Of a stretch of DNA of 64,000 nt, positions 93 to 50,346 are shown one piece after another. How positions within the stretch are numbered: position 1 is the first letter of the stretch; each line of letters opens with the position of its first letter. Source of the DNA: an uncultured Verrucomicrobiota bacterium (GTDB lineage Bacteria; Verrucomicrobiota; Verrucomicrobiia; Limisphaerales; J093); assembly GCA_964466945.1 (NCBI GenBank), contig CAYXPA010000006.1, forward strand, positions 189 to 64,188. Direction: 5' to 3'. Made by a program: the position numbers and the translations under genes. The notes under the pieces were generated by a model that did not search any database, was not told the origin of the DNA, and saw only the letters and a list, made by a program, of their open reading frames with translations.

Positions 93-332
93 TCACTGCT
101 TGGGCTTGAGCAGCGGGTGCTTGTAGTGGCGCTTGACGCTCTTGCAGGAATCCAGCGACTGGCGGGCGTCGTCGTTTTCCCAGACCTCATCGAAGACCGG
201 CCGGGTGGGGCGCCGGGGCAGGCGCCGCTCCTTGAGGATGGTGCCGTCGTCCTTGCACAAGATTTCGATGTACCGCGGCTCCTCCAGCGGCCGGAAGCGG
301 TTCGACAAAATGACCAGGACCTTGCGCTGCAT
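93..332 (-). CDS. hypothetical small protein (79 aa)
   Basis: ATG at 332 inside ORF 93..494. The protein runs MQRKVLVILSNRF...KHPLLKPKQ. G/C third-position bias is strong, as in the real genes here. No family recognised. Confidence 0.5.
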   Translation of the reverse strand: MQRKVLVILSNRFRPLEEPRYIEILCKDDGTILKERRLPRRPTRPVFDEVWENDDARQSLDSCKSVKRHYKHPLLKPKQ

Positions 333-473
333 GGTGTGCTCGTGTGCCCGCGCGCTGCGAGGCTGCGGGCGGCGTGGAAATACACCGCGCCGCCCTAGCC
401 GACAAGCCGGATTGACCCGCCGCAACCCGCGGAACTTTCCCAGCCCCGGTCGTCGGTGCCCGGCAACTAACCA

Positions 474-515
474 CAGGCATCCGGCGTCTGGCATCTGGCA
501 TCCGGTATCCGAACC
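474..515 (+). repeat. 7-bp tandem repeat tract (about 6 units, CCGGYAT-like)
   Basis: Read directly: CAGGCAT CCGGCGT CTGGCAT CTGGCAT CCGGTAT CCGAACC. Confidence 0.8.
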
Positions 516-610
516 CGCCCCACAGCGTCGGCAAGCCGGCCTGCCTGCGCCAAGCGAAGCACGGCAGGCAGGCGCACTCTAGCGAGGTAGGGCGCCGCTG
601 CGCCGGCGCC

Positions 611-743
611 GTAGCGCAGGTTTCCAACCTGCCGTACCGCCTACTTCCAGTCGGCAGACCGCCGGAATACCGCAGCGCCACGGAACACGCCCGCTTCTGC
701 GGGTGGGAAACCCGCGATCCGGCAGACCACAGGTCCGCGCTAC
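611..743 (+). repeat. 133-bp REPIN-like unit, copy 1
   Basis: Inverted termini GTAGCGCAG...CTGCGCTAC with internal hairpins. It differs from copy 2 at 10 of 133 positions by manual alignment. Confidence 0.9.
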
Positions 744-782: not shown

Positions 783-859
783 CCGGTATCCGATATCCGC
801 CATCCGGCATCCGGCCTATGGCATCCGGTATCCGGTATCCGGTATCCGGCCTCCGTCAT
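783..859 (+). repeat. 7-bp tandem repeat tract (11 units)
   Basis: CCGGTAT CCGATAT CCGCCAT CCGGCAT CCGGCCT ATGGCAT CCGGTAT CCGGTAT CCGGTAT CCGGCCT CCGTCAT, in exact 7-bp phase. Confidence 0.9.
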
Positions 860-1036
860 CCCCCCTTCTCACTCCTCCCTCCTCGCTTCTCACTCCTGAC
901 TGGGCAGGGCTCCGCTGCGCCGGCGCCCTACCCCGGCCGCGCCGCAGCGTGGCCGTACTGTGCGCCCAGCCTATGGGGTGCGGTACCTTGCCGCCGCGAG
1001 GAGGGAAGCCCGCGACCCAGGGCGGCGCGCCGTCGG

Positions 1037-2086
1037 TCAGGAGGCCGCCGGTTCGGCCGGCTTGGAGGCGGCCTTGAGCGCGGCCAGTTCTTTTTCGAGC
1101 TCGGCCAGGCGCCGGGCCATCTCCGGCAGGCGGTCCAAGAGCGCGTAGAGTCGTTTGGCCTGCGCGGCGGGACGGGCGGGGGACCCCAGCCAGACCTGGC
1201 CGGACGGCACGTGGTTGGTCACGCCGGACTGGGCGCCGATGACCGCGCGGTCGCCCACGTGGATGTGGCCCACCAGCCCGGCTTGGCCGGCCACGGTCAC
1301 ATAGTTGCCCAGGCGCGTGCTGCCGGCGATGCCGGCCTGCGAGATCAGCAGACAGTGCTGGCCGATGACCACGTTGTGGGCGATCTGCACCAGGTTGTCC
1401 ACCTTCGTGCCCCGGCCGATCACCGTGGCGCCGAGCGCGCCGCGGTCCACCGTGACGTTCGCCCCCAGTTCGACATCGTCCTCGATGACCACGTGCCCGA
1501 CCTGCGGCACTTTGCGGTGTTCGCCCCCGTCGAGCACGTAGCCAAAGCCGTCCGAGCCCACCACCACGCCGGCGTGCAGGCGCACCCGGCAGCCCACCTG
1601 CGTGCCCGCGTACAGCGTCACGCCGGGAAACAGCCGCGTGTCCGCGCCCACCTGACAGGCCGCGCCCACGTAATCGCCGGCCATGAGCACCACGCGCGGG
1701 CCGATCTGCGCGCGCTCCGCCACCACGCACAACGGGCCGATGTGCGCGGTGGGGTCCACGCGGGCGCCGGCCGCCACCACGGCGGTGGGGTGGATGCCCG
1801 GCGGAAATTCCGGTTCCGGGTAAAACCACGGCAGGATGCGGGCGAAGGCCACGCGCGCGTTGGGCACGCAGATGAGGGTTTTGCGCGAGGTCACTTCCCC
1901 GGCCACCAAGATGGCGGCCGCGGCGCTGGCCTCGGCGCGGGCCAGGTGTTTCGGGGTTTCGGCCCAGGTCAGGTCGCCCGGACCGGCGGCGTCGGCGGGG
2001 GCGAAGCCGGTGAGGGTGACGGTCGGGTCGCCCAGGACACGCCCCTCGAGGCGTTGGGCCAGTTCGGCGGCGGTGAAGGCGGGCAT
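1037..2086 (-). CDS. lpxD: UDP-3-O-acylglucosamine N-acyltransferase (LpxD)
   Basis: 349-aa ORF with left-handed beta-helix hexapeptide repeats and an LpxD-type N-terminal domain. ATG at 2086. Confidence 0.85.
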
Positions 2087-2471: not shown

Positions 2472-2568
2472 AACCGGCGGGCGGGTAGGCTCGCCGTGTG
2501 CCCAAATTCGCAAGCGGACGCGGCCAAGTCAACCATGCGCCGGGTCGCCCGCGGAGGAAGCCGGCCGG

Positions 2569-3414
2569 TCAGGCGGCGGGCGGCCGGAGGGGCGCCGCCT
2601 GGGCGGGCAGTTCGTTGAGGCTGCCGCGCCGGTAGCCCAGCAGGTCCAGCGTCACATGGGCGTAGCCCAGCTCTTGGAGCGCGGCGGCCACGCGCTGGGG
2701 CACGCCGTCGGCGAGGAATTTGCCCAATTCGCCGCGGCCCACCTCGATGCGGGCGAGGTGACCGGCCTGGAGTTCGTGATGCCGCACGCGCACGTCGTAG
2801 AAGCCCAGGTCGCGCAGGAGGTTTTCGGCGGCTTCGATCATGCGCAGCTTTTCCGGGCGGACGGCTTCGCCGTACGGGATGCGCGAGCTCAGGCAGGCCA
2901 TTTGCGGCTTGTCGGCGGTGGGCAGGCCGAGCCGGGCGGAGAGGGCGCGAATGTCCGCCTTGGTCAGGCCGGCTTCGCGGAGCGGGGCGCGGACCTGGAA
3001 TTCGGCGGCGGCCTGCGCGCCGGGACGGTGGTCGCCCGCGTCGCTGGCGTTTTCGCCGTAGGCGATGACGGCAAAGCCCTCGGCGCGGGCCAGCGGGACC
3101 AGTTCGCTGAACAGCTCGTGCTTGCAGAAATAACAGCGGTTTTGCGGGTTGGCGAGGTAGTCCGGGTTGAGGAACTCGCGGGTGCGGATGACCCGCACCG
3201 GGAAACCGAATTGCCGCGCCAGCTCGAGCGCCCCGGCCAGTTCGCGCCGCGGCAGGCTGAGCGAATCGGCGATGACCGCCAGCGCGCGCGCGCCCAGGGT
3301 TTGGTGCGCCACGTAAGCCAGGAAGACCGAGTCCACGCCGCCCGAGTAGGCCACCAGGCAGGAACCGTAGCCGCGCAGCAGCGCGCGCAATTTCTCCAAC
3401 TTGGCTTCGACCAC
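2569..3414 (-). CDS. LarE-like PP-loop ATP pyrophosphatase / sulfur transferase family protein
   Basis: SGGVDS PP-loop and ACLSSRIPYGE Cys motif within ORF 2569..3798. Only the C-terminal ~281 aa look coding. I propose a GTG start at 3414 (VVEAKLEKL), which is uncertain. Confidence 0.65.
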   Translation of the reverse strand: MVEAKLEKLRALLRGYGSCLVAYSGGVDSVFLAYVAHQTLGARALAVIADSLSLPRRELAGALELARQFGFPVRVIRTREFLNPDYLANPQNRCYFCKHELFSELVPLARAEGFAVIAYGENASDAGDHRPGAQAAAEFQVRAPLREAGLTKADIRALSARLGLPTADKPQMACLSSRIPYGEAVRPEKLRMIEAAENLLRDLGFYDVRVRHHELQAGHLARIEVGRGELGKFLADGVPQRVAAALQELGYAHVTLDLLGYRRGSLNELPAQAAPLRPPAA

Positions 3415-3464
3415 GGCGGCAAAGTGCCACGGGCGGGCGGGCTTGTCGAGCCGGGCCGCCGGGT

Positions 3465-4925
3465 TCAGGCGGGCGGCGCGCTCGCGGCCGGTTCGCCTGC
3501 CTCGGGCAATTCGGGCAGCGGCTCGCCGGTCAGGCGCACGACGCGGTTGGCGTAGCGGTGGAGGTGGCCTGTGGCCGTGTGGTAGGCCTGTTGGGCTTTC
3601 TCGAGGCTCTTGCCCACCTCCTCGAACTTGCGCTGGAAATGCGTGAAGCTCTGTTGAGCGGCGTTGAGTTGCTCGAGGGTTTTTTGCACGCCGCGGGCGA
3701 ACTCGAACTGGCTGATGCTCATGGCCACGGCCTTGAGTGTGATGGCCAGGGTGTTGGGCGAGACCGGAAAGACCTTCAGCTTGTGCAGCGCCTCGCACAA
3801 CTCGCCGTTGCGGATCACCTCGAAGTACAGCGTCTCGCTGGGCAGGAACATCAGCGCCAGGTCCGTGGTACGGTGCTCGGGGTGGATGTATTTGGCGGCG
3901 ATCTCGCGCGCCTGCTCCTTGATGGTCCGGGCCAGTTGCTCGCGGGCGGCCTGGAGCGCCGCGGGGTCGCTGGTCTCGAAGAGCGGCAGCACCTGTTCGC
4001 GGTTGAACTTGCTGTCAATGGGCAGCCGGTAGTTCGGGAACCGGACCACCGCGTCCACCTTTTCCGGCGAGCCTGGCACGATCGCCACCTGTTCCTCGTA
4101 GGCGCCGGCCGGCAGGAAATCCGCCAGCAGCCGGCCCAGCTCGGCCTCGCCGAACTTGCCGCGCAGGTGCGGCAGCTTGAGCAGGGCGTTGAGCTCGTTG
4201 ATGGACTGGCCCACCTGCCCGACGCTGCGTAACTGCTCCTCGGCCGCCCGCAGGTGTTCCTGCACCTTCTGGAAGTGCGCGAAGCCTTCCTGGAGGTTCT
4301 TCTCGAGCTTGGCCTGCACCTGCTCGCTGATGGCTCCCAGCCGGGCGTCCACGCTGGCCCGGATGGCCTCCAGGTTTTGCGCGGTGCGCTGCTCCAGCGC
4401 CGCGAAACGCTGCTCGAGCGCCCGGGTGGACTCGCCCAGCGCCTGGGCCAGCTCGCCCCGGGCCTGGCGCGCCGCCTGGGCCTGCGTCTCGCTGAGCTGA
4501 TCGAACTTGGCGGCCAGCTTGTCGCCCACCTGGCCCAGACGCGCGTCGGTGCCGGCGCGCAACGCCTCGAATTTCTGCTCGAGCGCGGCCACCGCGGCGT
4601 CCAGCCGCCGCGCCTGCTCGCCGCGCCCCTCGCTCAACTGCCGCTCGACCCCGTCGCGCAGGGCCAGCGTCCCGGCCTGGAGCCGCTCGGCCAGGTCGGT
4701 GCGCAGGTCGCCCTTGACCTGTTCGAGGCGCGCGGCCATGTCGGTTTGGGCCCGCGTAAACGTGTCCGCGAGGTGGTTTTCCAGATCGCCGAGTCGCTGG
4801 TGCAATTCCTCCGGGATGGCCGCGCCCGGGCGGACGCGCCGCCAAACCAGCGCGGCCAGGCCGGCCAGCCCCAGGACCACCGTTGCGAGCAGGATGCCAA
4901 ATTGCCAGTCGTGCATGGCGGGCAT
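3465..4925 (-). CDS. rmuC: DNA recombination protein RmuC
   Basis: N-terminal TM helix, long coiled coil and RmuC C-terminal nuclease-like domain. ATG (MPAMHDWQFG) at 4925 inside ORF 3465..5936. Confidence 0.85.
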   Translation of the reverse strand: MPAMHDWQFGILLATVVLGLAGLAALVWRRVRPGAAIPEELHQRLGDLENHLADTFTRAQTDMAARLEQVKGDLRTDLAERLQAGTLALRDGVERQLSEGRGEQARRLDAAVAALEQKFEALRAGTDARLGQVGDKLAAKFDQLSETQAQAARQARGELAQALGESTRALEQRFAALEQRTAQNLEAIRASVDARLGAISEQVQAKLEKNLQEGFAHFQKVQEHLRAAEEQLRSVGQVGQSINELNALLKLPHLRGKFGEAELGRLLADFLPAGAYEEQVAIVPGSPEKVDAVVRFPNYRLPIDSKFNREQVLPLFETSDPAALQAAREQLARTIKEQAREIAAKYIHPEHRTTDLALMFLPSETLYFEVIRNGELCEALHKLKVFPVSPNTLAITLKAVAMSISQFEFARGVQKTLEQLNAAQQSFTHFQRKFEEVGKSLEKAQQAYHTATGHLHRYANRVVRLTGEPLPELPEAGEPAASAPPA

Positions 4926-13311: not shown

Positions 13312-14439
13312 ATGGACCGACCGCCCCAACCGCTGGACCTGGAACGCCTCAAAGTCCGGCCACTGGCCGAGCGCCGGAGCCTGTCCGCGCTCGAGGAAAT
13401 CCTCGTCGAACCGGCCCACGACCCGCCGCCCCTGCCCGAACCGTTGCTCGCTCAGGTGGCCGCGTGCGCCGGACACATCCGCGCCGCCCGCCAGCGCGGC
13501 GCCGGCGTGATGCTCATCTACGGGGCGCACCTGATCAAAAACGGCGGCCAACTGCTGCTGGTGCGTTTCCTGGACCACGGCTGGGTCACGCACCTGGCCA
13601 CCAACGGCGCCGGCACCATTCACGACTGGGAATTCTCCTGGCTGGGCCGCTCGACCGAGAGCGTGCGGGACAACGTCGCCACCGGCACCTTCGGCACTTG
13701 GGACGAAACCGGCCGCCACATCCACACCGCGCTCCTGTTGGGCGGCGTGCGCGGCGAGGGCTACGGCCGTGCGCTGGGCCGTTACATCTACCAGGACGGC
13801 GGCGTGGTGCCCGACCCCGCCGAACTCGAGGCGGCCATCCGCCAGAATCCCGCCGACCCTCTCACCGGCGCGCGCGCCGACCTGTTGGCCGCCATCCGGC
13901 GCCACGGCCTGACGCCCGGCCCGCTCCTGGTCAATCACCGCTGGCGCAACGTTTCGCCCCTGGCCAACGCCTTCCGCCACGACGTGCCCTTCACCGTGCA
14001 CCCGGGCATCGGCTACGACATCATCACCAACCACCCGCTGTTCAACGGCGCGGTCCTGGGCCGCGCCGCGGGGCTGGACTTCCGCCAGTTCGCCGGCTCG
14101 GTGGACACGTTGGACGGCGGCGTGGTGCTCAACATCGGCTCGGCCATCATGGGCCCGCAGGTCTTCGAAAAGGCCCTCAGTTGCGTCCACAACCTCCGCC
14201 GCCAGGCCGGCCGGCCCCTCGTGCGCGGCCACCACCTCTACGTGGTGGACATCCAGGACGGCGGCGGCTGGGACTGGACCCGCGGCGAACCGCCCCGCGA
14301 CAACCCGGCTTACTACCTGCGCTTCTGCAAGAGCTTCGCCCGCATGGGCGGCACCCTCCACTACGTCCAGTGCGACAACGTGGCCTTCCTGCATCACCTC
14401 TTCCACGCCCTCGCCCGGCTCCAGCCCGCCCCCGCATGA
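13312..14439 (+). CDS. deoxyhypusine-synthase-like (DHS-like NAD-binding fold) protein, function unknown
   Basis: The pattern VMLIYGAHLIKNGG...HLATNGAGTIHDWE...VLNIGSAIMGPQ resembles DHS-family motifs. The call is from memory and was not HMM-verified. Confidence 0.45.
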   Translation: MDRPPQPLDLERLKVRPLAERRSLSALEEILVEPAHDPPPLPEPLLAQVAACAGHIRAARQRGAGVMLIYGAHLIKNGGQLLLVRFLDHGWVTHLATNGAGTIHDWEFSWLGRSTESVRDNVATGTFGTWDETGRHIHTALLLGGVRGEGYGRALGRYIYQDGGVVPDPAELEAAIRQNPADPLTGARADLLAAIRRHGLTPGPLLVNHRWRNVSPLANAFRHDVPFTVHPGIGYDIITNHPLFNGAVLGRAAGLDFRQFAGSVDTLDGGVVLNIGSAIMGPQVFEKALSCVHNLRRQAGRPLVRGHHLYVVDIQDGGGWDWTRGEPPRDNPAYYLRFCKSFARMGGTLHYVQCDNVAFLHHLFHALARLQPAPA

Positions 14440-15464
14440 ACCGCGCCCGCTTCGAAACCCTCACCGCCCGTTACCCCGCCCTGCGCCTCGCCGTGGTGGG
14501 CGATTTCTGCCTGGACCGCTACCTCGAAATAGACCCCGCGCGCGCCGAGACCTCGCTCGAGACCGGCTTGCCCGTGTACAACGTCGTCAACGTCCGCAGC
14601 CAGCCCGGCGCAGCCGGCACCATCCTCAACAACCTGGCCGCCCTGGGCGCGGCCACGCTCTACCCGGTGGGCTTCTGCGGCGAAGACGGCGAAGGCTACG
14701 AACTTCAGCGCGCCCTGCGCGCCCGCCCCGGCGTGCGGCTGGACCACTTCCTGGCCACGCCCCGGCGCCGCACCTTCACCTACTGCAAACCGCTGGTACT
14801 CGAACCCGGTCGCCCACCCCGCGAACTCAACCGCCTGGACTCCAAAAACTGGTCCCCCACGCCGCCCGAGGTCGAAGACCGCCTCCGCGACTCCGTGCGC
14901 GCCCTGGCCCCCGGCGTGGACGCCCTCATCGTCCTGGACCAGGTGGACCTGCCCGACACCGGCGTCGTTACCCGGCGCGTGCTTGAGACCCTCGACGAAA
15001 TCTCCCGCGCCCACCCGGACAAGTCGATCATTGCCGACAGCCGCCGCGGCCTGCGCGACTTCCCGCCCCTGACCTTCAAAATGAACGGCCGCGAGCTGGG
15101 CGCCCTCACCGGCGCCGGACCCCTGCGCGAAATCGAGCCGGTGCGCCGCCACGCCCGCGAACTGGCCGCGCGCAACGGCAAACCCGTCTTCGTCACCCTG
15201 GCCGAACAGGGCATCGTGGGCGCCGCGCCGGACGGCCGGGTCGAGCACGTCCCCGCCCTCCCCGTGCGGGGGGAAATTGACATCGTGGGCGCCGGGGACG
15301 CCGTGACGGCCAACCTCGCCTGCGCCCTGACCGCCGGCGCCTCGCTGCGCGAAGCCATGGAACTGGCCATGGCCGCCGCCTCCCACGTCATCCATCAGCT
15401 CGGCACCACGGGCACCGCCTCGGTGGCCGACCTCCGCGCCCTCGCCGTCGGCCCGGCCTCGTAG
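14436..15464 (+). CDS. PfkB-family carbohydrate kinase (RfaE domain I / ribokinase-like)
   Basis: DIVGAGDAVTANLACAL anion-hole motif. ATG at 14436 overlaps the upstream stop (ATGA). In frame in ORF 12741..15464. Confidence 0.8.
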   Translation: MNRARFETLTARYPALRLAVVGDFCLDRYLEIDPARAETSLETGLPVYNVVNVRSQPGAAGTILNNLAALGAATLYPVGFCGEDGEGYELQRALRARPGVRLDHFLATPRRRTFTYCKPLVLEPGRPPRELNRLDSKNWSPTPPEVEDRLRDSVRALAPGVDALIVLDQVDLPDTGVVTRRVLETLDEISRAHPDKSIIADSRRGLRDFPPLTFKMNGRELGALTGAGPLREIEPVRRHARELAARNGKPVFVTLAEQGIVGAAPDGRVEHVPALPVRGEIDIVGAGDAVTANLACALTAGASLREAMELAMAAASHVIHQLGTTGTASVADLRALAVGPAS

Positions 15465-15593
15465 CGCAGGTTTCCAACCTGCTGTATCGCCGACTTCCAG
15501 TCGGCAGACCGCCGGAATACAGCAGCGCCGCGGAACACGCCCGCATCTGCGGGTTGGAAACCCGCGATCCGGCAGACCGGAGGTCTGCGCTAC
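15461..15593 (+). repeat. 133-bp REPIN-like unit, copy 2
   Basis: GTAGCGCAGGTTTCCAACCTGC...GCAGACCGGAGGTCTGCGCTAC. Its GTAG head contains the TAG stop of the upstream CDS. Confidence 0.9.
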
Positions 15594-15618
15594 GTTGCCG
15601 ACGCGCGCCCCCGTAGCG

Positions 15619-15674
15619 CCGGCCTCCGGCCTCCGGCCTCCGGTATCCTGTATCCGGCATCCGGCATCCGGCAT
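15619..15674 (+). repeat. 7-bp tandem repeat tract (8 units)
   Basis: CCGGCCT x3, CCGGTAT, CCTGTAT, CCGGCAT x3. Confidence 0.9.
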
Positions 15675-15878
15675 CCCCCTTCTCACTCCTCGCTTCTCAC
15701 TTCTGATTCGGTAGGGCTCCGCTGCGCCGGCGCCGCTCGCCCGGCCGCGCCGCAGCGCGGCCCTACCGACAGCGCCGGCCAGCCGGCCTGCCTGCGCCAT
15801 GCGAAGCGCGGCAGGCAGGCGCACTCCATACGCTCCGCGACTGTGCGGGCGCTCGACTCGCGCGCCAGCGTTTGGAGT

Positions 15879-15904
15879 GCGGCAGCTTGCTGCCGCTTTC
15901 TTGC
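15879..15904 (+). terminator. terminator-like hairpin module of the repeat (GCGGCAG-CTTG-CTGCCGC + TTTCTTGC)
   Basis: 7-bp GC stem, tetraloop and T-rich tail. This is the only intrinsic-terminator-like structure downstream of the 9438-15464 gene string. Confidence 0.35.
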
Positions 15905-15989
15905 ACAAGGTGGTTGACCAAGTTGACAGTGCTGCCCGGAACCAACGGAGTTATTTCGGCTGAAGGTTACACCGCAAAGCAGGGGCCGG

Positions 15990-17084
15990 TTATGCGGGAG
16001 AGGGGGTGGCGGCGCGCTTGGCGAGGATGGCGTCCACGATTTTTTGGGCGAGGTCGGGTTTTTCGACGAGGAGTTTTTGGGCGGCGTCGCGTCCCTGGCC
16101 GATGAGTTCGCCGCCGAATTGGAGCCAGGCGCCTTTTTTCTCGAGGACGCCGTGTTCGAGGGCGACGTCCAGGATGTTGCCTTCGCGGTTGATGCCGTGG
16201 TTGAAGAGGATGTCGAATTCGGCTTCGGCGAAGGGGGGGGCGACCTTGTTTTTGACGACCTTGGTTTTGACGTGGTTGCCGATGACGTTGCCGGCGGGGT
16301 CTTTGATGGCGTCTTTGCGGCGGATGTCGATGCGGACGCTGGCGTAGAATTTGAGGGCTTTGCCGCCGGGGGTGGTTTCGGGGTTGCCGAAGAGGACGCC
16401 GACTTTTTCGCGGATTTGGTTGGTGAAGATGCAGGCGGTTTTGGCCTTGGCGAGGATGGCGGTGAGTTTGCGGAGGGCCTGGCTCATGAGGCGGGCCTGC
16501 ATGCCCATGGTGGCCATACCCATTTCGCCTTCGAGTTCGGCCTTGGGGACGAGGGCGGCGACGGAGTCAATGACGATGACGTCCAGCGCGTTGGAGCGGG
16601 CGAGGGTTTCGCAGATGGTGAGGGCTTCTTCGCCGCTGTCGGGCTGGGAGACCAGGAGGTCGTCGAGGTTGACGCCGAGTTTTTTGGCGTAGGCGGGGTC
16701 GAGGGCGTGCTCGGCGTCAATGAAAGCGGCCAGGCCACCGGCTTTTTGGGCGTTGGCGATGACGTGGAGCATGAGGGTGGTTTTGCCGGAGGACTCGGGG
16801 CCGAAGATTTCGACGATGCGGCCACGGGGAATGCCGCCGACGCCCAGGGCGAGGTCCAGGCCGAGGGCGCCGGTGGGGATGACTTCGATTTTGACGCGGG
16901 CGCGTTCGTCGCCCAGGCGCATGATGCTGCCTTCGCCGTAGGTTTTGGTGATGGTGGAGATGGCGGCGTCGAGGTCGCGCTGGCGGGCGGCGTCGCGGCG
17001 GGCCTTTTCGGGCTCGGGGGCAGGGGCCGGGGCGGCGGGTTGGGGTTTATCGGGGGCGGTTTTTTCGGGCGTCTTGGGCGGCAT
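15990..17084 (-). CDS. recA: recombinase RecA
   Basis: GPESSGKTT Walker A and full RecA core. Carries a ~30-aa Pro/Ala/Lys-rich N-terminal extension. Confidence 0.95.
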
Positions 17085-23484: not shown

Positions 23485-23505
23485 GAGGTGTTACCACCGG
23501 GCGAC

Positions 23506-25734
23506 ATGTTGGCCGCCCAAAATCGGGGGCTGTTATCGGGCTTGGCCCGGGCCTTTGGCAAGCCTGCTCGCCGCCCGGCGGCCGCGCCTCCGACGGGGGC
23601 CGGGCGGCCACGGGTAAGCGCGGCCAGGGCCGCACTTTATTGCAGTCTGCTCCTGCTCCTGGCGGGCTGCGGCGTCCAGGGGCGCGACCACTTGCTGCTG
23701 GGCCAAAGGCTGCTCCAAGAAGGCCGCCCGGCCGAGGCCATCGAGCCGCTCCAGGCCGCGATTCAAGCCCTGCAAACCAACGCCCCCGCCGCCGCCCAGG
23801 CGTGGAACTACCTCGGCCTGGCCTACCATCGGGCGGGGCAAGCCGCCGAGGCCGCCCGGGCTTACAAGGCGGCGCTGGACCGCGACTTCAACCTCTTCAC
23901 CGCCCGCTACAACCTGGGCGCGCTGTTCTTCGAGCAGGGCAATTACACCGCCTCCATCAACGAGCTGACCACCTACACCGCCCACCAGCCCAAAGACCCG
24001 GCCGGCTGGCTCTTGCTCGGCCGGGCGCAACTGCGCGCCGGCTTGCTCGACGCCGCCGACCGCAACCTGCTCCAGGCCCTGCGCCTGAACCCCGGCCTGC
24101 AGCAGCAAGCCGAAGCCCTCAACGCCCTCGGCCTGGGCCAGGTCCAACGCCGCCGGGCGCGCGAGGCCTTCCAGTATTTCGAGGCCGCCCTGAACCGCGT
24201 CACCAACTACCCGCCCGCGCTGCTCAACCAGGCCATCCTTTCCCAGCAGGTGCGCGACTACCGTTACGCCCTCCAAAAGTACGCCGCTTACCTCGACGTG
24301 GCCGGACAGGCTGCCAACGCCGAAACCATCCGCAGCCTCACCAACCGTCTGAGCGAACAAATTGCCCTGGCGCTCAAGCCCGCTCCGGCGCCGGCCGCCC
24401 CGCCGCCCGCGACCAACCTGCTCGCCAATCTCCGCACCGCGACGCCGCCCGCCGCCACTCCAGCCGCGCCGACCCCGAGCCAGGTCCGCACCACGGCGCC
24501 TCCGGCCAAACCATCCGTCACCGCGCCCCCGGTGATCGCTCAAACTTCCCCACCACCGGCCACGGTCGCCACCACCGCGCCGCCACCAGCCGTTGCCGCC
24601 GCCAAACCACCCGTCCAAACGCCGTCGGAGACAAAACCCGCGCCGCCGCCGGTCGCGGCGACCACGCCGCGCGCCGCACCACCCGTCGCCAGCGAGACCG
24701 CAAAAACTCAACAGGCCACGCCCGGTCCCGCGCCAACGCCCGCCGCCACCACCCCCAAGCCGGAAACCCCGCCTGCGCCCGTCGTGGAAACGGTCGAGCT
24801 CGCGGCCGAACCGGAAATCAAACCCGCCGTGGACGTGGCGCTCGCGCCCGCCGCCACCGCGGCCCGGCCGCCCGCCACCAACACCACTCCATCTGCTGCG
24901 CCATCACCCGCGCCAGCGGCCAGTCCCGCCCCGGCTTCGCCTGCTGCCACGCCGGCTCCGTCCGCTGCGACCGCTGGAAGCGCGGCAAAAGAATCCGAAC
25001 CACCCCGCAAACGCTCTCTCATCGCCCGGCTCAACCCGCTCAATCTCATCCGCGGCGAAGGCGACCCGGATAAAATCCGCGAACGCGAGGCCAAAAAAGC
25101 TGCCGAGCAGGCCCGCAAAGCGGAAAAAGAGGCGGCCAAAAAACGGACCACCCCCGTCGAACGCAAGACCGCGGCCGCCGCGCCAGCCCCGGAGCCCGAG
25201 CCGCCGCGCCCCGTTTTCCCCCGGTACAAGTACGCAACGCCGGCACCGCCCGCGCCCGGCAACCGCGCGGAAGCCGAACGCTTGGTGGCCGAAGGCGTGA
25301 CCGCGCATCGCGCCGGGCGACTGGGCGAAGCGTTGGCCGCTTACCAGCGCGCCGCACGCGCCGACCCGGCGCATTTCCCGGCCCACTTCAACCTGGCCGT
25401 GGCCGCGTTCGAGCAACGCGACTGGCCGCGCGCCCTGGCCGCTTACGAGACCGCGCTGGCCCTGGACCCTGCCCATGCCGATGCCCGCTACGGCTTCGCC
25501 CTCTCCCTCGAACGCGCCGGTTACCCCCTCGACGCCGCGGCCGAGTTGGAAAAAATCCTTGCCCGCGACCCGCGCCACGTCGAAGCGCACCTGGCCCTGG
25601 CCAACCTCTGCGCCACGACGCTGGCCGACCGCGACCGCGCGCGGGAGCACTACCTCAAAGTGCTCCAACTCCAGCCCAACCACCCCCAGGCCGGGCTGAT
25701 CAAACGCTGGCTGGGCCCGGCCTGGCGGCCATGA
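23506..25734 (+). CDS. TPR-repeat lipoprotein with long Pro/Ala/Thr-rich linker
   Basis: Lipobox LLLLAGC, with N- and C-terminal TPR blocks flanking ~300 aa of low-complexity PA-rich sequence. ATG at 23506; the ORF-track start at 23488 is GTG. Confidence 0.75.
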   Translation: MLAAQNRGLLSGLARAFGKPARRPAAAPPTGAGRPRVSAARAALYCSLLLLLAGCGVQGRDHLLLGQRLLQEGRPAEAIEPLQAAIQALQTNAPAAAQAWNYLGLAYHRAGQAAEAARAYKAALDRDFNLFTARYNLGALFFEQGNYTASINELTTYTAHQPKDPAGWLLLGRAQLRAGLLDAADRNLLQALRLNPGLQQQAEALNALGLGQVQRRRAREAFQYFEAALNRVTNYPPALLNQAILSQQVRDYRYALQKYAAYLDVAGQAANAETIRSLTNRLSEQIALALKPAPAPAAPPPATNLLANLRTATPPAATPAAPTPSQVRTTAPPAKPSVTAPPVIAQTSPPPATVATTAPPPAVAAAKPPVQTPSETKPAPPPVAATTPRAAPPVASETAKTQQATPGPAPTPAATTPKPETPPAPVVETVELAAEPEIKPAVDVALAPAATAARPPATNTTPSAAPSPAPAASPAPASPAATPAPSAATAGSAAKESEPPRKRSLIARLNPLNLIRGEGDPDKIREREAKKAAEQARKAEKEAAKKRTTPVERKTAAAAPAPEPEPPRPVFPRYKYATPAPPAPGNRAEAERLVAEGVTAHRAGRLGEALAAYQRAARADPAHFPAHFNLAVAAFEQRDWPRALAAYETALALDPAHADARYGFALSLERAGYPLDAAAELEKILARDPRHVEAHLALANLCATTLADRDRAREHYLKVLQLQPNHPQAGLIKRWLGPAWRP

Positions 25735-25943
25735 AAGCGAGGAGTGAGAAGTGAGTCCGGAAGCCGGACGCCGCAGCCGACACGGAGCGTGTGGAGTGCG
25801 CCTGCCCGCTGCGCTTCGCTGGGCGCGGCAGGCCGGCTGGCCGGCGCTGTCGGCAGGGCCGCGCTGCGGCGCGGCCGGGGGGGACGGCACCGGCGCAGCG
25901 GCGCCCTGCCCAGTCAGGAGTGAGAAGCGGGGAGTGAGGAGTG

Positions 25944-25999
25944 GGATGCCGGATGCCGGATACCGGATGCCAGATACCAGAGGCCGGATGTCGGATGCG
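25944..25999 (-). repeat. 7-bp tandem repeat tract (8 units, GGATRCC orientation)
   Basis: GGATGCC GGATGCC GGATACC GGATGCC AGATACC AGAGGCC GGATGTC GGATGCG. Confidence 0.9.
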
Positions 26000-26027
26000 G
26001 GCATTACGGGGGCGGCGTGTCGCCTGC

Positions 26028-26160
26028 GTAGCGCAGACCTCCGGTCTGCCGTATCGCGGGTTTCCAACCCGCAGATGCGGGCGTGTTCCGTAGCGCTGCG
26101 GTATTCCGGCGGTCTGCCAACTGGAAGTCGGCGGTACGGCAGGTTGGAAACCTGCGCTAC
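26028..26160 (-). repeat. 133-bp REPIN-like unit, copy 3
   Basis: Reverse complement aligns full length to copies 1 and 2. Confidence 0.9.
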
Positions 26161-26455
26161 GAGGCCGGGCCGACGGCGAGGGCGCCGTCGGCGGCACGCG
26201 CGGACGCGTGCGCTCCCCCAAATCAAGGTCGCCGGCAAGTTGCCGCCTGCCTGCCGGCAGGCAGGCCGACCACGGCCTGGTGGGCCGTTCCAGCCGGGAC
26301 AAAGAGCGGCAGCAAGCTGCCGCACTCCATGCGCTGGCGCGCGAGTCGAGCGTCCGGCCCGTTGCAGAGCGTATGGAGTGCGCCTGCCCGCAGCGCTTCG
26401 CTCGGCGCAGCGGCGCCCTGCCCAGTCAGGAGTGAGAAGCGGGAAGTGAGAAGTG

Positions 26456-26532
26456 GGATGCCGGATGCCGGATACCGGATGCCAGATACCGGATACCAGA
26501 TGCCAGAGGCCGGATGTCGGATGCCGGATGCG
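26456..26532 (-). repeat. 7-bp tandem repeat tract (11 units)
   Basis: Same tract as 25944-25999 but three units longer. Confidence 0.9.
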
Positions 26533-26566
26533 GGAGTCGGGAGCGGCAGGCGGCTCGCCCGGCCGC

Positions 26567-26699
26567 GTAGCGCAGACCTCTGGTCTGTCGTATCGCGGGT
26601 TTCCAACCCGCCGGTGCGGGCGTATTCCGCGGCGCTGCGGTATTCCGGCGGTCTGCCGACTGGCAGTCGGCGGTACGGCAGGTTGGAAACCTACGCTAC
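26567..26699 (-). repeat. 133-bp REPIN-like unit, copy 4
   Basis: Reverse complement aligns full length to the other copies. Loop variants are TCT, GGC and CCGG. Confidence 0.9.
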
Positions 26700-26999
26700 C
26701 GGGCCGACGGCGCGGCGCCGTCGGCGGCACGCGCGGGGCGCGTGCGCTCCCCGGAACAAGTCGCCGGCAAGTTGCTGCCGGCTCGCCGGCAGGCAGGCCG
26801 ACCACGGCCTGGCCGTTCCACCCAGAGGGAAAGCAGTGGCAGACGGCCGCTGGTGGACACCGTCGGGCGGCGAGCGTTGATTGGGCCGAAATGGGCTTGG
26901 TTGGCCGGGCGCCGCACGGCGGGTGCGGGCTGTGTATGGGGTCCTCCGCAGGGCGGGGTGAAAAATCGGGGACGAACCAAAATTTTTCGCAAATAGCAG

Positions 27000-27027: not shown

Positions 27028-27097
27028 CTTCGCCTCTTTTCGCCCCCCGGCGGCGGCGGGCCTGAAAGCAAGCCGCCCGGGTGGCCTGATTTACGCG

Positions 27098-27514
<417 letters not shown>

Positions 27515-47470: not shown

Positions 47471-48268
47471 CTAGGGCGTGGGGGCGGGAGCGCCCGGCGG
47501 GGCGGCGGCGTTGGTGGAGGGGCCGGGCGTGGCGGCGGGTGCAGAGGCCGCCGACGGCGCACCCGCGCCGACTGGAGTGATGACGGGCGGGTTGGCCGGC
47601 GCCGCCGCGGGGGCCAACTCCGGGTGCTGTCGCAGCAGCGTGTCCCGTTTGACCGAGGCCTCCATCGCGGCGCGCCCCGCGGTGCGGTCTGCCTGCAGGC
47701 TGTCATAGATTTTCAGCGCCTCGGCGAATTGTCCGCGCGCCTCGTGCAACGCCGCCAGGGCCAGCCGCGCGCGGCCCGAGACGGGGTCGTCCGGGTACTT
47801 GGCAATCACCTGCTGGTAAGCGGCCATGGCGGCCTCCACCTTGTCCTCGGCATCCAGGCACGTGGCCGCACCCAGCGCCGCCATCGGCGCCAGCAACCCG
47901 GTGTCGTCCCGGGCCACGACCTCCTCGAAACGGGCCCGCGCCTCCGCGTACTTGCCGGCCTGGTACAACTCCCCGGCGGCCAGCAGCAAGGCCCGCACGG
48001 CTGCTTGGGAGGAGCCGTATCGGGCGGCCAGTTGCACAAACGCGTCGTGCCCGGGGCCGGACTTTTCCTCCGCCCGGCCGGCCGGGGTCAGCGCCAGCAG
48101 CGCGTGATTGGCCTGCAATTCATTCTGCCCGCGAAACCAGAAAAAGACGTAGCCGCCCACGATCAGGAGCAACACCCCCACCGCGCCCAGGACCAACTGC
48201 CGGCGGTGCAACTCCGCCCAGGCCCAGGCTTCGTAAATCCACGTGGATTCCTGCTTTTCCGGCTGCAT
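47471..48268 (-). CDS. YfgM-like membrane-anchored TPR protein with PA-rich C-terminal tail
   Basis: N-terminal TM followed by a TPR-like domain. ATG (MQPEKQ) at 48268. Confidence 0.65.
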   Translation of the reverse strand: MQPEKQESTWIYEAWAWAELHRRQLVLGAVGVLLLIVGGYVFFWFRGQNELQANHALLALTPAGRAEEKSGPGHDAFVQLAARYGSSQAAVRALLLAAGELYQAGKYAEARARFEEVVARDDTGLLAPMAALGAATCLDAEDKVEAAMAAYQQVIAKYPDDPVSGRARLALAALHEARGQFAEALKIYDSLQADRTAGRAAMEASVKRDTLLRQHPELAPAAAPANPPVITPVGAGAPSAASAPAATPGPSTNAAAPPGAPAPTP

Positions 48269-48473
48269 AGAAAGCGCGGATTCTTTGAGACGGGGTTGGA
48301 AACGCAAGAAGGAAATCCCGCGCTTAAGTGTGCTCGGCGCATTTCGAGCCATCGGCGTGGGCCGGGAGAAGGTCCCGGTTTGGGAAGCGCACGCGTCCCT
48401 GCGTGCTGCCGTGCTCAACTGTGGCGCATTGGTGCGCGTGTTGCCGTCGGCGCCACCGCTGTTGGCCTTGCCT

Positions 48474-48589
48474 CGTAGCGCAGGTTTCCAACCTGCTGTA
48501 TCGCCGACTTCCAGTCGGCCACGGCAGGGGGTGAGCGGAGCTCCGGCGGGTTGAAAACCCGCGGTACAGCAGACCAGAGGTCTGCGCTA
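48474..48589 (+). repeat. 116-bp variant of the REPIN-like unit, copy 5
   Basis: Same GTAGCGCAGGTTTCCAACCTGC and GCAGACCAGAGGTCTGCGCTAC ends, but the centre is replaced or shortened. Confidence 0.85.
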
Positions 48590-48621
48590 CTCCGTCGAGC
48601 GATTCGCCAGCCGCTCCCGAC

Positions 48622-48656
48622 TTCTGCATCCGGCATCCAGCATCCGGCATCCGACC
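48622..48656 (+). repeat. 7-bp tandem repeat tract (5 units)
   Basis: TCTGCAT CCGGCAT CCAGCAT CCGGCAT CCGACCT. Confidence 0.8.
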
Positions 48657-48778
48657 TCGCTCCACAGCGCCGGCGAGCCGGCGCACTCCAGACGCTTCGC
48701 GAGGTAGGTCGCCGCTGCGCCGGCGCCGCCCATCCGGCCGGGACGCAGCCCGGCCCTACCGCGCGCCGGCGCATGGAG

Positions 48779-48801
48779 TGCGGCAGCTTGCTGCCGCTTT
48801 T
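48779..48801 (+). terminator. terminator-like hairpin module of the repeat (GCGGCAG-CTTG-CTGCCGC + T5)
   Basis: Same module as 15879-15904. Here it sits upstream of rlmI, so a terminator function is doubtful. Confidence 0.25.
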
Positions 48802-49035
48802 TGCCCGGGTGGAACGGCCAACTGGGCCGTGGTCGGCCTGCCTACCGTCAGGCAGGCGGTAACCTGCCGCCGAACCGCCCCGCGCGGTGCACGCGTCCCG
48901 CGCAAAGGAGACGCCCGAGCGCACCATGATTCCCGGGACCATTCCCCGTTTCCAGACTCCCCAAGGACTCGTCGGCCTCGGCGCGGCAATTGGTTCGACG
49001 CCCGCCCGCCGCCGCGCCATGCTGGTTGGGTGCCG

Positions 49036-50346
49036 ATGACGCGCCGTTCGTTTCCGCCTCGCGAAGCCGGTCCCTCCGCGCCGGGCCCCGAAGCGTCGGG
49101 GCCTCCGCGCGCCGAAGAAGCGGCTGCTGGCACGGCCCCGCCCGCGCCCTCCGCGATTCGGGAAACCGCCGACCCCGCCACGTGGGCGCGACCCTGGGTG
49201 CAGCTCAAGTACCTGAGTTTCTCGCCGCAAATTTACCCCGCCATGATCCGGGCGGCTTCGCCCGAGGCCGCCCCGGGCAGTCTGGTGACCGTGTACGACA
49301 AGGAAGGGCGGCGGTTTGGCGCCGGGCTCTATCACCCCCGCGCCCGGGTGCCGCTGCGCATGTTTCACCATGGCGAAGCCCCGTTCGGCGAAGCGGATTT
49401 TCTGGCCCTCCTGGACCGCGCCGTGGCGCTGCGCCTGGACGTGCTGCGGTTGCCCGAGGTGACCGACGCCTTCCGCGTGGTGCACTCGGACGGAGACGGT
49501 TTGAGCGGTCTGATCGTGGACCGGTATGCGGATGTTCTGAGCGTGGAGGTCCACAGCCTGGGTGTCTGGCAGCGGCTCCCGCAATGGTTGCCGCGCCTGC
49601 ACGCCCGGTTGGGTACACGGCACGCGGTGGTCGAGGTCAGCGAGTTCGCCACGCGGGTGGAAGGCATCCCGGCGCTCGCCCCGGAGCGTCCCGCGGTGGC
49701 GCGGGTCAAAATCCGCGAGCACGGCGTCCGCTTCGAGGTGGACTTCGCCCGCGGGCACAAGACCGGCTTTTTCTGCGATCAGCGGGACAACCGCTTGCGC
49801 CTGGCGCGCTGGATCAACCCGACCCACCGCGTGCTGGACCTGTGTTGCTACACGGGCGGTTTCGCCCTGGCCGCCGCCGTGCTGGGGCGGGCCACGGACG
49901 TGACCGGGGTGGACCTGGACGAAGCGGCCATCGCCCAGGCCCGCCGCAACGCAAATCTGAATGGGGTGCGCGTGAGCTGGGTGCACTGCGACGCCTTCAG
50001 TTATGCGCGCCAGATGCAGCGCAACGGGCGGCGCTGGGACGTGGTCGTGGCCGACCCGCCCAAGTTTGTGGCCACGCGCGAGGAGTTCCGCGACGGCCAG
50101 CGCCGGTACGAGGACCTCAACGGCCTGGCGTTGAGCCTGCTGGAGCCCGGCGGCCTGTTGGTGACCTGCTCGTGCTCGGGGCTGGTTGCGGCGGAGGACT
50201 TCGAGCAGTTCGTCTGCCGCGCCGCGCACCGCCAGGGTCGGCGCTTGCAAATCCTGGACCGCACCGGCGCGGGGCCGGACCACCCGGTGATGTCCAACTG
50301 CCCGGAGGGCCGGTACCTCAAGGTCCTTTGGGCGCGGGTGCTCTGA
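49036..50346 (+). CDS. rlmI: class I SAM-dependent rRNA (cytosine-C5) methyltransferase, RlmI-like
   Basis: PUA-like N-terminal domain, VLDLCCYTGGF SAM motif and DPPKF motif. ATG at 49036; the start is uncertain. Confidence 0.75.
   Translation: MTRRSFPPREAGPSAPGPEASGPPRAEEAAAGTAPPAPSAIRETADPATWARPWVQLKYLSFSPQIYPAMIRAASPEAAPGSLVTVYDKEGRRFGAGLYHPRARVPLRMFHHGEAPFGEADFLALLDRAVALRLDVLRLPEVTDAFRVVHSDGDGLSGLIVDRYADVLSVEVHSLGVWQRLPQWLPRLHARLGTRHAVVEVSEFATRVEGIPALAPERPAVARVKIREHGVRFEVDFARGHKTGFFCDQRDNRLRLARWINPTHRVLDLCCYTGGFALAAAVLGRATDVTGVDLDEAAIAQARRNANLNGVRVSWVHCDAFSYARQMQRNGRRWDVVVADPPKFVATREEFRDGQRRYEDLNGLALSLLEPGGLLVTCSCSGLVAAEDFEQFVCRAAHRQGRRLQILDRTGAGPDHPVMSNCPEGRYLKVLWARVL

Follow-up and report, generated by a model that had tools for sequence, protein, structure and literature searches.

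The window, by which we mean the whole 64-kb stretch of Verrucomicrobiota DNA analysed here (G+C about 68%), holds five copies of a short repeated element. The DNA belongs to a JGI metagenome contig of 68.7 kb (3300037465 Ga0394876_0001773). The positions of the copies, and those of the genes and repeats around them, are collected in Table 1. All five copies are intergenic, judging from codon-position GC and from the Pfam-annotated neighbours, and one abuts a stop codon. Both orientations relative to the adjoining genes are found, and orientation is not tied to transcription. The four copies of 133 bp had been reported in an earlier note on this DNA with exact coordinates and strands. For the fifth, the reported length of 116 bp was right but the position, 48474-48589, was one base off. 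Ten differences over 133 positions had been counted between copies 1 and 2, and the same count was obtained on realignment; other pairs of copies differ at 7 to 13 positions. The terminal 22-mer GTAGCGCAGGTTTCCAACCTGC matches the window seven times with up to 3 mismatches, against 0.00 expected from shuffled sequence. With a degenerate pattern for a single REP unit, 17 units were scored in the window against 0.22 expected. As all 17 fall within the five copies, the window contains no singlet REP units detectable by this pattern.

Table 1. Coordinates of the element copies, neighbouring genes and associated repeats in the window.
Feature	Position	Strand	Remarks
Copy 1	611-743	+	133 nt; REP units 611-632, 634-655, 699-720 (rc) and 722-743 (rc)
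133-aa ORF	93-494	-	Neighbour of copy 1
LpxD gene	1037-2086	-	Neighbour of copy 1
Copy 2	15461-15593	+	133 nt; between convergent PfkB-family and RecA genes
Copy 2, left arm			GTAGC 15461-15465; hairpin 1 15466-15482; GTATC 15484-15488; hairpin 2 15489-15505
Copy 2, centre and right arm			Centre 15506-15548; hairpin 3 15549-15565; hairpin 4 15572-15588; GCTAC 15589-15593
PfkB-family kinase gene	14436-15464	+	TAG stop 15462-15464, supplied by the GTAG head of copy 2
Copy 3	26028-26160	-	133 nt; first unit of the 539-bp tandem duplication of the mosaic
Copy 4	26567-26699	-	133 nt; second unit of the 539-bp tandem duplication
TPR gene	23488-25734		Neighbour of copies 3 and 4
rpsL	27083-27514		Neighbour of copies 3 and 4
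Copy 5	48475-48590	+	116 nt; same four hairpins, shorter and different centre
TPR gene	47471-48418	-	Neighbour of copy 5, divergent from the next
Methyltransferase gene	48778-50346	+	Neighbour of copy 5
Mosaics holding the copies	about 476-960, 15436-15904, 25783-26823, 48434-48873
Mosaic around copy 2	15436-15904	+	25-nt left flank, element, heptamers, type-2 palindrome, 61-nt module 15766-15826
Heptamer array (CCGGCAT)n	783-861		About 40 nt downstream of copy 1
Equivalent heptamer arrays	476-511, 15619-15676, 25944-25998, 26456-26535, 48626-48653
(CCGGCAT)n then (CTCACTC)n	extents include 868-901, 25912-25998, 26431-26535		Adjoin every copy
Second GTAG palindrome, GTAGGGC...GCCCTAC	15708-15769		Intact; arms of 28 nt, 82% complementary
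Half copy of second palindrome	586-610		Abuts copy 1
Conserved inverted-repeat module	15808-15893, 26309-26394, 48666-48798		27-nt arms
Terminator-like hairpin with T run	15879-15896		Distal part of the 15808-15893 module

Each copy is made of four REP units of 22 nt, and each unit of a 5-nt head, a 7-bp stem and a 3-nt loop (TCC). Two tandem units run inward from each end, and a variable centre lies between them. On the top strand the left arm reads GTAGC-GCAGGTT-TCC-AACCTGC, one base, and then GTA(T/C)C-GCCGACT-TCC-AGTCGGC. The right arm mirrors it, with GCGGGTT-GGA-AACCCGC-GAT(A/C)C as hairpin 3 and GCAGACC-GGA-GGTCTGC-GCTAC as hairpin 4. Heads are therefore of two kinds, GTAGC in the outer units and GTA(T/C)C in the inner ones. 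The inverted-repeat termini GTAGCGCAG...CTGCGCTAC and the 7-bp hairpins described in the earlier note are both real. A single inverted pair of REPs had been proposed: the inverted arrangement was found, but the 22-mers number four, two per side. Since all four are of the same design, the element is a doublet of tandem doublets rather than a single inverted pair. The outer GTAGC units have the organisation by which REPs are recognised, a GT(A/G)G directly 5′ of a short imperfect palindrome. As in REPINs, it is the composite and not the singlet that is repeated: singlets are missing from the window, and 103 of 138 matches in related loci (see below) are full length. A BIME of the E. coli type, with strictly alternating REPs and defined linkers, was ruled out, as two forward units are followed by two reverse ones; the window does have a mosaic in which the element is combined with other repeats, a BIME-like trait.

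The centre is 25, 43 or 61 nt long, that is, 7 + n × 18, and the lengths of the element cluster at 115, 133 and 151 nt. When centres were compared with themselves, the sole peak of identity was at offset 18 (0.40, versus about 0.27 elsewhere). From these length steps and this peak, each centre is probably built from a degenerate 18-nt unit present one to three times, according to its class. No conserved structure was evident in the centre, only the 18-nt periodicity. The alternative hairpin CCCGC-N4-GCGGG, which had been pointed out previously, was located there, but the centre is not conserved in other genomes.

The 133-bp unit of the earlier note does recur as such, but in the window the repeat reaches far beyond it, into mosaics of 330-540 bp. 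The segments 15436-15837 and 26185-25783, which carry copies 2 and 3, are 89.6% identical over 404 bp, and a weaker similarity to the site at 48760-48804 runs on to 15904. Copies 1 and 4 have 332 bp in common, at 84-85% identity. In the tandem repeat formed by copies 3 and 4, the period of 539 bp covers the whole mosaic, with element, heptamers and modules, and this duplicated mosaic occupies the 1.35 kb of non-coding DNA immediately upstream of rpsL.

The (CCGGCAT)n arrays are part of the larger mosaic in the genome of the window only. They recall the STRR heptamers of cyanobacteria. Over 1.6 Mb of related loci, 35 arrays of period 7 were counted, versus 0 to 6 for each of the periods 5, 6, 8, 9 and 10. 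The sequence of the heptamer unit differs between genomes, and outside the window the enrichment of heptamer arrays near the element is weak (6 versus 2.4 expected). The mosaic also contains a second type of GTAG palindrome. Half of such a palindrome abuts copy 1, and for this reason copies 1 and 4 appear, from their sequence context, to sit mid-way in a palindrome of this second type. The last 8 or so codons of the PfkB-family gene lie in the 25-nt repeat flank that is also found beside copy 3, in non-coding DNA, so that the repeat seems to have replaced the native 3′ end of this gene. Stop codons formed by the TAG of a GTAG head were also seen at two other genes (loci L113 and L091), besides the RAYT genes of five genomes described below.

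An exact search with the 22-mer, carried out on one genome per species, returned at least 114 loci from at least 42 assemblies. The exact terminus of the element is thus present in at least 42 species-level assemblies, mostly of Verrucomicrobiota. Among the matches listed, 29 assemblies are labelled Verrucomicrobiota, Verrucomicrobiia, Limisphaerales, Pedosphaera, Limisphaera or Opitutaceae, 6 have no phylum label, and 7 are labelled as other phyla, mostly with short contigs; at least 27 loci, also among the matches listed, come from one MAG. Nine element contigs (L031, L038, L065, L023, L048, L078, L095, L099 and L105) belong to MAGs labelled Bacillota, Zixibacteria, Coprothermobacterota, Hebobacteria, Pirellulales or Planctomycetota. 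Most of these contigs are short, and they are for this reason probably mis-binned or mislabelled Verrucomicrobiota DNA. An nhmmer search of the 22-mer loci gave the 138 non-overlapping matches mentioned above. A metagenome scan with the hairpin-4 variant added 120 loci and 69 further full copies; none of these 120 loci contained a RAYT and none overlapped the window. The centre specific to the window, CAGACCGCCGGAATACNGCAGCGC, had 0 matches in a metagenome scan of its own.

Arms are conserved between genomes and the centre is genome-specific. For centres of one length class, identity is 0.76-0.82 in the same genome versus 0.37-0.38 between genomes, and the corresponding values for the arms are 0.90-0.96 and 0.79-0.81. 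Centres that are similar within genomes and divergent between them indicate, at the level of sequence, lineage-specific amplification. Each lineage would amplify its own master copy, and the arms would be held constant by the enzyme. The similarity within genomes could also come from gene conversion or segmental duplication.

No pair of empty and filled sites was found among the loci. At 7 of 50 unique sites, the flanks of the element form a stem scoring above the 95th percentile of the controls; insertion into palindromes is thus a minority feature, and was rejected as a general rule. In one MAG (CAVQND01; loci L076, L040, L111, L039, L015 and others), a 115-nt variant is nested in a repeat of about 215 bp, which has outer inverted repeats of its own, TAGCCCGGATATTTCAC ... 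GTGAAATATCCGGG.

Selection on structure was analysed on an alignment of the 45-nt left arm and the 45-nt right arm of 56 distinct copies. The 22-mer used to gather the loci fixes hairpin 1, and conservation of hairpin 1 is therefore partly by construction. Over the 56 copies, the four local hairpins are 98.7% paired. Compensatory changes were found at 12 pairs, with 123 cells altered on both sides, a result matched by 0 of 500 shuffles, and controls in which the stems were slid reached only 27-39% pairing. When the left arm is paired with the right one in the same copies, the figure is 86.4%, under the shuffled mean, and essentially no compensatory change links the two arms. Moreover, a consistent difference between hairpins 2 and 3 at stem position 3 prevents them from cross-pairing in 53-54 of the 56 copies. 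When single sequences are folded, the structure of minimum free energy uses long-range pairs, and its stability exceeds that of shuffled sequences with z-scores of −5.4 and −6.0. Both conformations, local hairpins and long-range pairing, are possible; what evolution preserves is the local hairpins. As for the long hairpin typical of REPINs, the element has the inverted 2 + 2 units that could form it, and arms complementary at 86.4%, with variation compensated within the local hairpins only.

Selection on structure had been proposed in the earlier note because differences between copies seemed to accumulate in loops. Family-wide the trend is reversed: conservation is 0.95-0.97 in loops versus 0.89-0.91 in stems, and 1.00 in the outer heads. 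The argument from an excess of loop substitutions therefore fails. Stem variation is concentrated at positions 5 and 6, where it is compensated, and selection on structure is borne out by these compensatory changes in the four hairpins. We conclude that selection acts on four local hairpins with fixed heads and loops.

Rfam searches of the whole window at the gathering score returned two tRNAs only. Over the element, a search of 15300-16000 at an E-value threshold gave only a chance match to tRNA-Sec (E = 0.71). A scan for terminators and promoters found no T run after the stem-loops of the element, which was thereby rejected as an intrinsic terminator; the only terminator-like site nearby lies outside the element, in the inverted-repeat module of the mosaic (Table 1).

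REPINs are mobilised by RAYT proteins, and a partner gene was looked for. A tblastn search with an approximate E. coli RAYT query gave two leads, L013 and L069. In the window, neither this query nor the L013 RAYT had any tblastn match, in agreement with the absence noted earlier. This is expected, since RAYT genes are usually present in single copy. The open reading frame at 4813-5550 of L013 encodes a protein of 245 aa that matches Pfam Y1_Tnp (PF01797) with 31.1 bits for a cut-off of 23. It scores 77.1 bits with NCBIfam REP_Tyr_transpos, just under the equivalog cut-off of 80, and 24.3 bits with the IS200 model. The best match in the PDB is 4ER8, the E. coli TnpA_REP (E = 7e-6), and in this alignment the HUH and tyrosine motifs are superposed, HVHVL over HMHCI and YIRNNPV over YIYINPV. 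At E ≤ 1e-10 there are 6516 homologues, many of them named RayT by JGI, and 16 homologues, of 65-100% identity, all keep residues H149, H151 and Y210. The protein thus has the Y1 HUH fold expected of a RAYT, with its HUH motif and catalytic tyrosine.

The earlier note had suggested looking for a Y1 transposase gene flanked by hairpins of the element, and this is what five related genomes contain: the RAYT gene is bracketed by the element on both sides in L013, L115/116, L117, L118 and L119. The four contexts other than L013 carry members at 88, 79, 79 and 70% identity. Upstream, a full copy ends some 25-60 nt before the ATG in L115 to L119 (24 nt in L119, 58-60 nt in L115 and L118). The upstream copy of L013 is incomplete and stops about 170 nt short of the ATG. 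Downstream, the copy begins 3 nt before the end of the RAYT gene in all five genomes, so that in 5 of 5 the TAG stop of the RAYT gene is the TAG of a GTAG head. The same arrangement, truncated, was seen in L006 and L069; in L069 only a C-terminal remnant of the RAYT lies beside a copy. Around the RAYT of L119 there are two upstream copies and six tandem downstream copies. The latter, of about 102 nt each, occupy 3238-3758 and are annotated as a 203-aa protein with no Pfam match, which is almost certainly a spurious gene call from the repeats. L115 carries two tandem RAYT genes (2501-3238 and 3588-4325) that encode the same 245-aa protein and are separated by pairs of elements.

A homologous large gene resembling multihaem cytochromes adjoins the RAYT or its remnant in three genomes (L013 5715-7937, L115 4490-5738 and L069 3593-4600). 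This conserved position suggests vertical inheritance of the RAYT within that sub-clade. RAYT homologues P0003-P0120 are mostly found on contigs of about 1-2 kb, which is consistent with assemblies breaking at the flanking repeats.

We propose, with a probability of about 0.8, that the 133-bp unit is a non-autonomous element of the REP/REPIN type belonging to Verrucomicrobiota. The RAYT genes bracketed by the element, the covariation within its hairpins, the genome-specific centres and the lack of target-site duplications all support this reading. A REPIN-like element with its RAYT located elsewhere had been put forward in the earlier note. The association was indeed found, in five other genomes; the window itself has no RAYT, and the long REPIN hairpin is without covariation.

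By analogy with E. coli TnpA_REP and with IS200/IS605 transposition, from which the mechanism below is drawn (PMC3479197, PMC8266576, PMC6006769), the RAYT would bind GTAG-tagged hairpins on single-stranded DNA, for instance at the replication fork, and would cut and rejoin DNA beside them. Whole four-hairpin units may in this way be copied or moved in trans into intergenic DNA without target duplication, sometimes perhaps inside a loop of another palindrome or right at a stop codon. Given the symmetry of the element, two units of head plus hairpin stand at the 5′ side of either strand. The outer GTAGC heads are invariant and the inner GTA(T/C)C heads variable, which leads us to speculate that only the outer units might be cut. 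The five copies of the window would be passive ones, carried further within the larger intergenic mosaic. A role at the level of the host, such as protection of mRNA 3′ ends or provision of protein binding sites, is possible.

Three other explanations were weighed against the REPIN/RAYT reading. Perfect terminal inverted repeats (GTAGCGCAG...CTGCGCTAC), a size in the range of 100-170 bp and the nesting, in one MAG, inside a 215-bp element with outer inverted repeats are all what a classical MITE would show, that is, a deletion derivative of a DDE-type IS moved via terminal inverted repeats of 9-22 bp and leaving target-site duplications. However, at 50 unique sites no direct repeats of 2-8 nt were found beyond chance, by which this origin is practically refuted. 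The sole transposase found beside copies is a Y1 HUH enzyme, which makes no such duplications, and a GTAG head followed by a hairpin with stem covariation is the organisation of a REP. Membership of an already described IS or MITE with target-site duplications, an outcome that the earlier note had considered, finds no more favour, with no duplication at these sites. We hold a MITE origin to be hardly credible. The copies of the window might otherwise be remnants of a REP family that has died out. With its RAYT inactive or lost in the lineage, they would now multiply solely as parts of larger intergenic mosaics, through segmental or tandem duplication and gene conversion. This would account for a window in which no RAYT is found and every copy is embedded in a 330-540 bp mosaic common to several sites, one of them a 539-bp tandem duplication, and it would fit the RAYT remnant of L069. 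In other genomes, however, the flanks of most copies are unique and the RAYT genes are intact, with invariant catalytic residues; the arms, moreover, stay conserved where neutral decay would erase them. This makes the relic explanation very unlikely.

The other possibility is that the element is a functional structured RNA or DNA signal selected by the host at each locus and not mobile, its link to the RAYT being secondary. It could act as a stabiliser of mRNA 3′ ends, a terminator or attenuator, or a platform for nucleoid-protein binding, and the REPs of E. coli are known to have secondary roles of this kind. In favour of such a signal are the four hairpins, kept in many species by strong purifying and compensatory selection, the intergenic location, once directly at a stop codon, and a single-strand fold far more stable than its shuffles (z of −5.4 and −6.0). 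Against it, the copies lie in both orientations relative to flanking genes, one of them between divergent genes; with no T run they are not intrinsic terminators, and they match no Rfam family. Conserved arms around a genome-specific centre are the signature of amplification from a master copy, the copies do not occupy orthologous sites, and the element is found on both sides of RAYT genes. We therefore find a host signal of this sort unlikely, and retain the REPIN/RAYT reading.

A bolder form of the REPIN/RAYT reading can be stated, which taken as a whole is tentative and rather improbable: the element would be a "double REPIN", a distinct, higher-order class of RAYT substrate. Cleavage would take place at its outer GTAGC hairpins, whereas its inner GTATC hairpins would stay uncut and serve for binding or guidance. 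The spacing of 7 + 18n nt would be set by the shape of a RAYT multimer, exposed single-stranded palindrome loops and TAG stops would be the targets of insertion, and the element would have stayed near-unchanged across an order-level Verrucomicrobiota clade through domestication for a host function.

To our knowledge, REP/REPIN-RAYT systems have been studied almost only in Proteobacteria. The present family offers a clean and deeply conserved case in Verrucomicrobiota, a phylum that has received little study, with the transposase identified. Covariation tells which structure is selected, namely four local hairpins with fixed heads and loops, and the tandem units of each arm are an architecture reported as rare elsewhere. 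Substrate recognition by RAYTs, and the length of time over which such partnerships last, could be studied with this family. In practice, the repeats interrupt metagenome assemblies and create spurious ORF calls, such as the 203-aa protein of L119, and the element can mark Verrucomicrobiota contigs mis-binned into other phyla.

Comparison with known systems places the element as follows. REPINs with their RAYT are known from Pseudomonas fluorescens SBW25 (Bertels and Rainey 2011, as reported in PMC3733652), and RAYTs were described by Nunvar et al. 2010 (PMC2817692). Those REPINs and the present element have in common GTAG-tagged hairpins in inverted arrangement, a composite unit rather than a single REP as the repeated entity, intergenic location without target-site duplication, a single Y1 HUH transposase gene bracketed by the same repeats, and a sequence population proper to each genome. 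Unlike the REPINs of SBW25, which have two hairpins, the element has four, two tandem units per arm, with inner GTATC/GTACC heads and a spacer growing by steps of 18 nt, and it belongs to the phylum Verrucomicrobiota. Compensation supports four local hairpins here and not one long hairpin, and at least 42 species-level assemblies share one and the same terminal 22-mer.

The E. coli REP/BIME system with TnpA_REP (YafM; PDB 4ER8; PMC3479197, PMC8266576) provides the closest solved relative of the partner protein, with HUH and tyrosine motifs aligned. The partner is nevertheless about 80 residues longer, at about 27% identity to the approximate E. coli query. REPs of E. coli also have a 5′ GTAG and an imperfect palindrome, and the mosaic with other motifs recalls BIMEs, whereas the hairpins here are short (7 bp) with a fixed TCC loop, and the units are two forward and two reverse, not strictly alternating. 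As for IS200/IS605 elements, a Y1 HUH transposase, subterminal hairpins acting on single-stranded DNA and insertion without target duplication would be common to both, by analogy. Those elements, however, have no terminal inverted repeats, and their transposase gene is internal. The protein found here belongs to the RAYT branch (77.1 bits with REP_Tyr_transpos versus 24.3 with IS200), and symmetric units are dispersed without the gene.

Within the phylum, the REP families GTAG-17, GTAG-18 and GTAG-19 of Opitutus terrae were reported by Di Nocera et al. 2013 (PMC3733652), a study that describes GTAG-tagged REPs, their dimers, RAYT genes with a REP overlapping their 3′ end, and REPs located within other palindromes. 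These families share with ours the phylum, the GTAG-tagged superfamily and the formation of dimers and clusters. The peptides encoded by their intragenic members (VGPALAAG, GTGVPPV and HGRHARAT) do not fit the sequence of the four-hairpin element, and the families therefore appear to be different in sequence, as judged from these peptides. The second palindrome of the window (GTAGGGC...) looks closer to the GC-rich O. terrae type than the main element does. Each arm here is a head-to-tail dimer, an arrangement that PMC3733652 calls rare or absent in most families. The four-hairpin sequence is not listed in the supplements of that article. In the literature we found no description of the four-hairpin family, and only PMC3733652 joined REPIN, RAYT and Verrucomicrobi- as search terms. 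We conclude that the kind of element, the REP/REPIN, is known, but that this sequence family is new, and unusual in its four-hairpin layout and its broad conservation.
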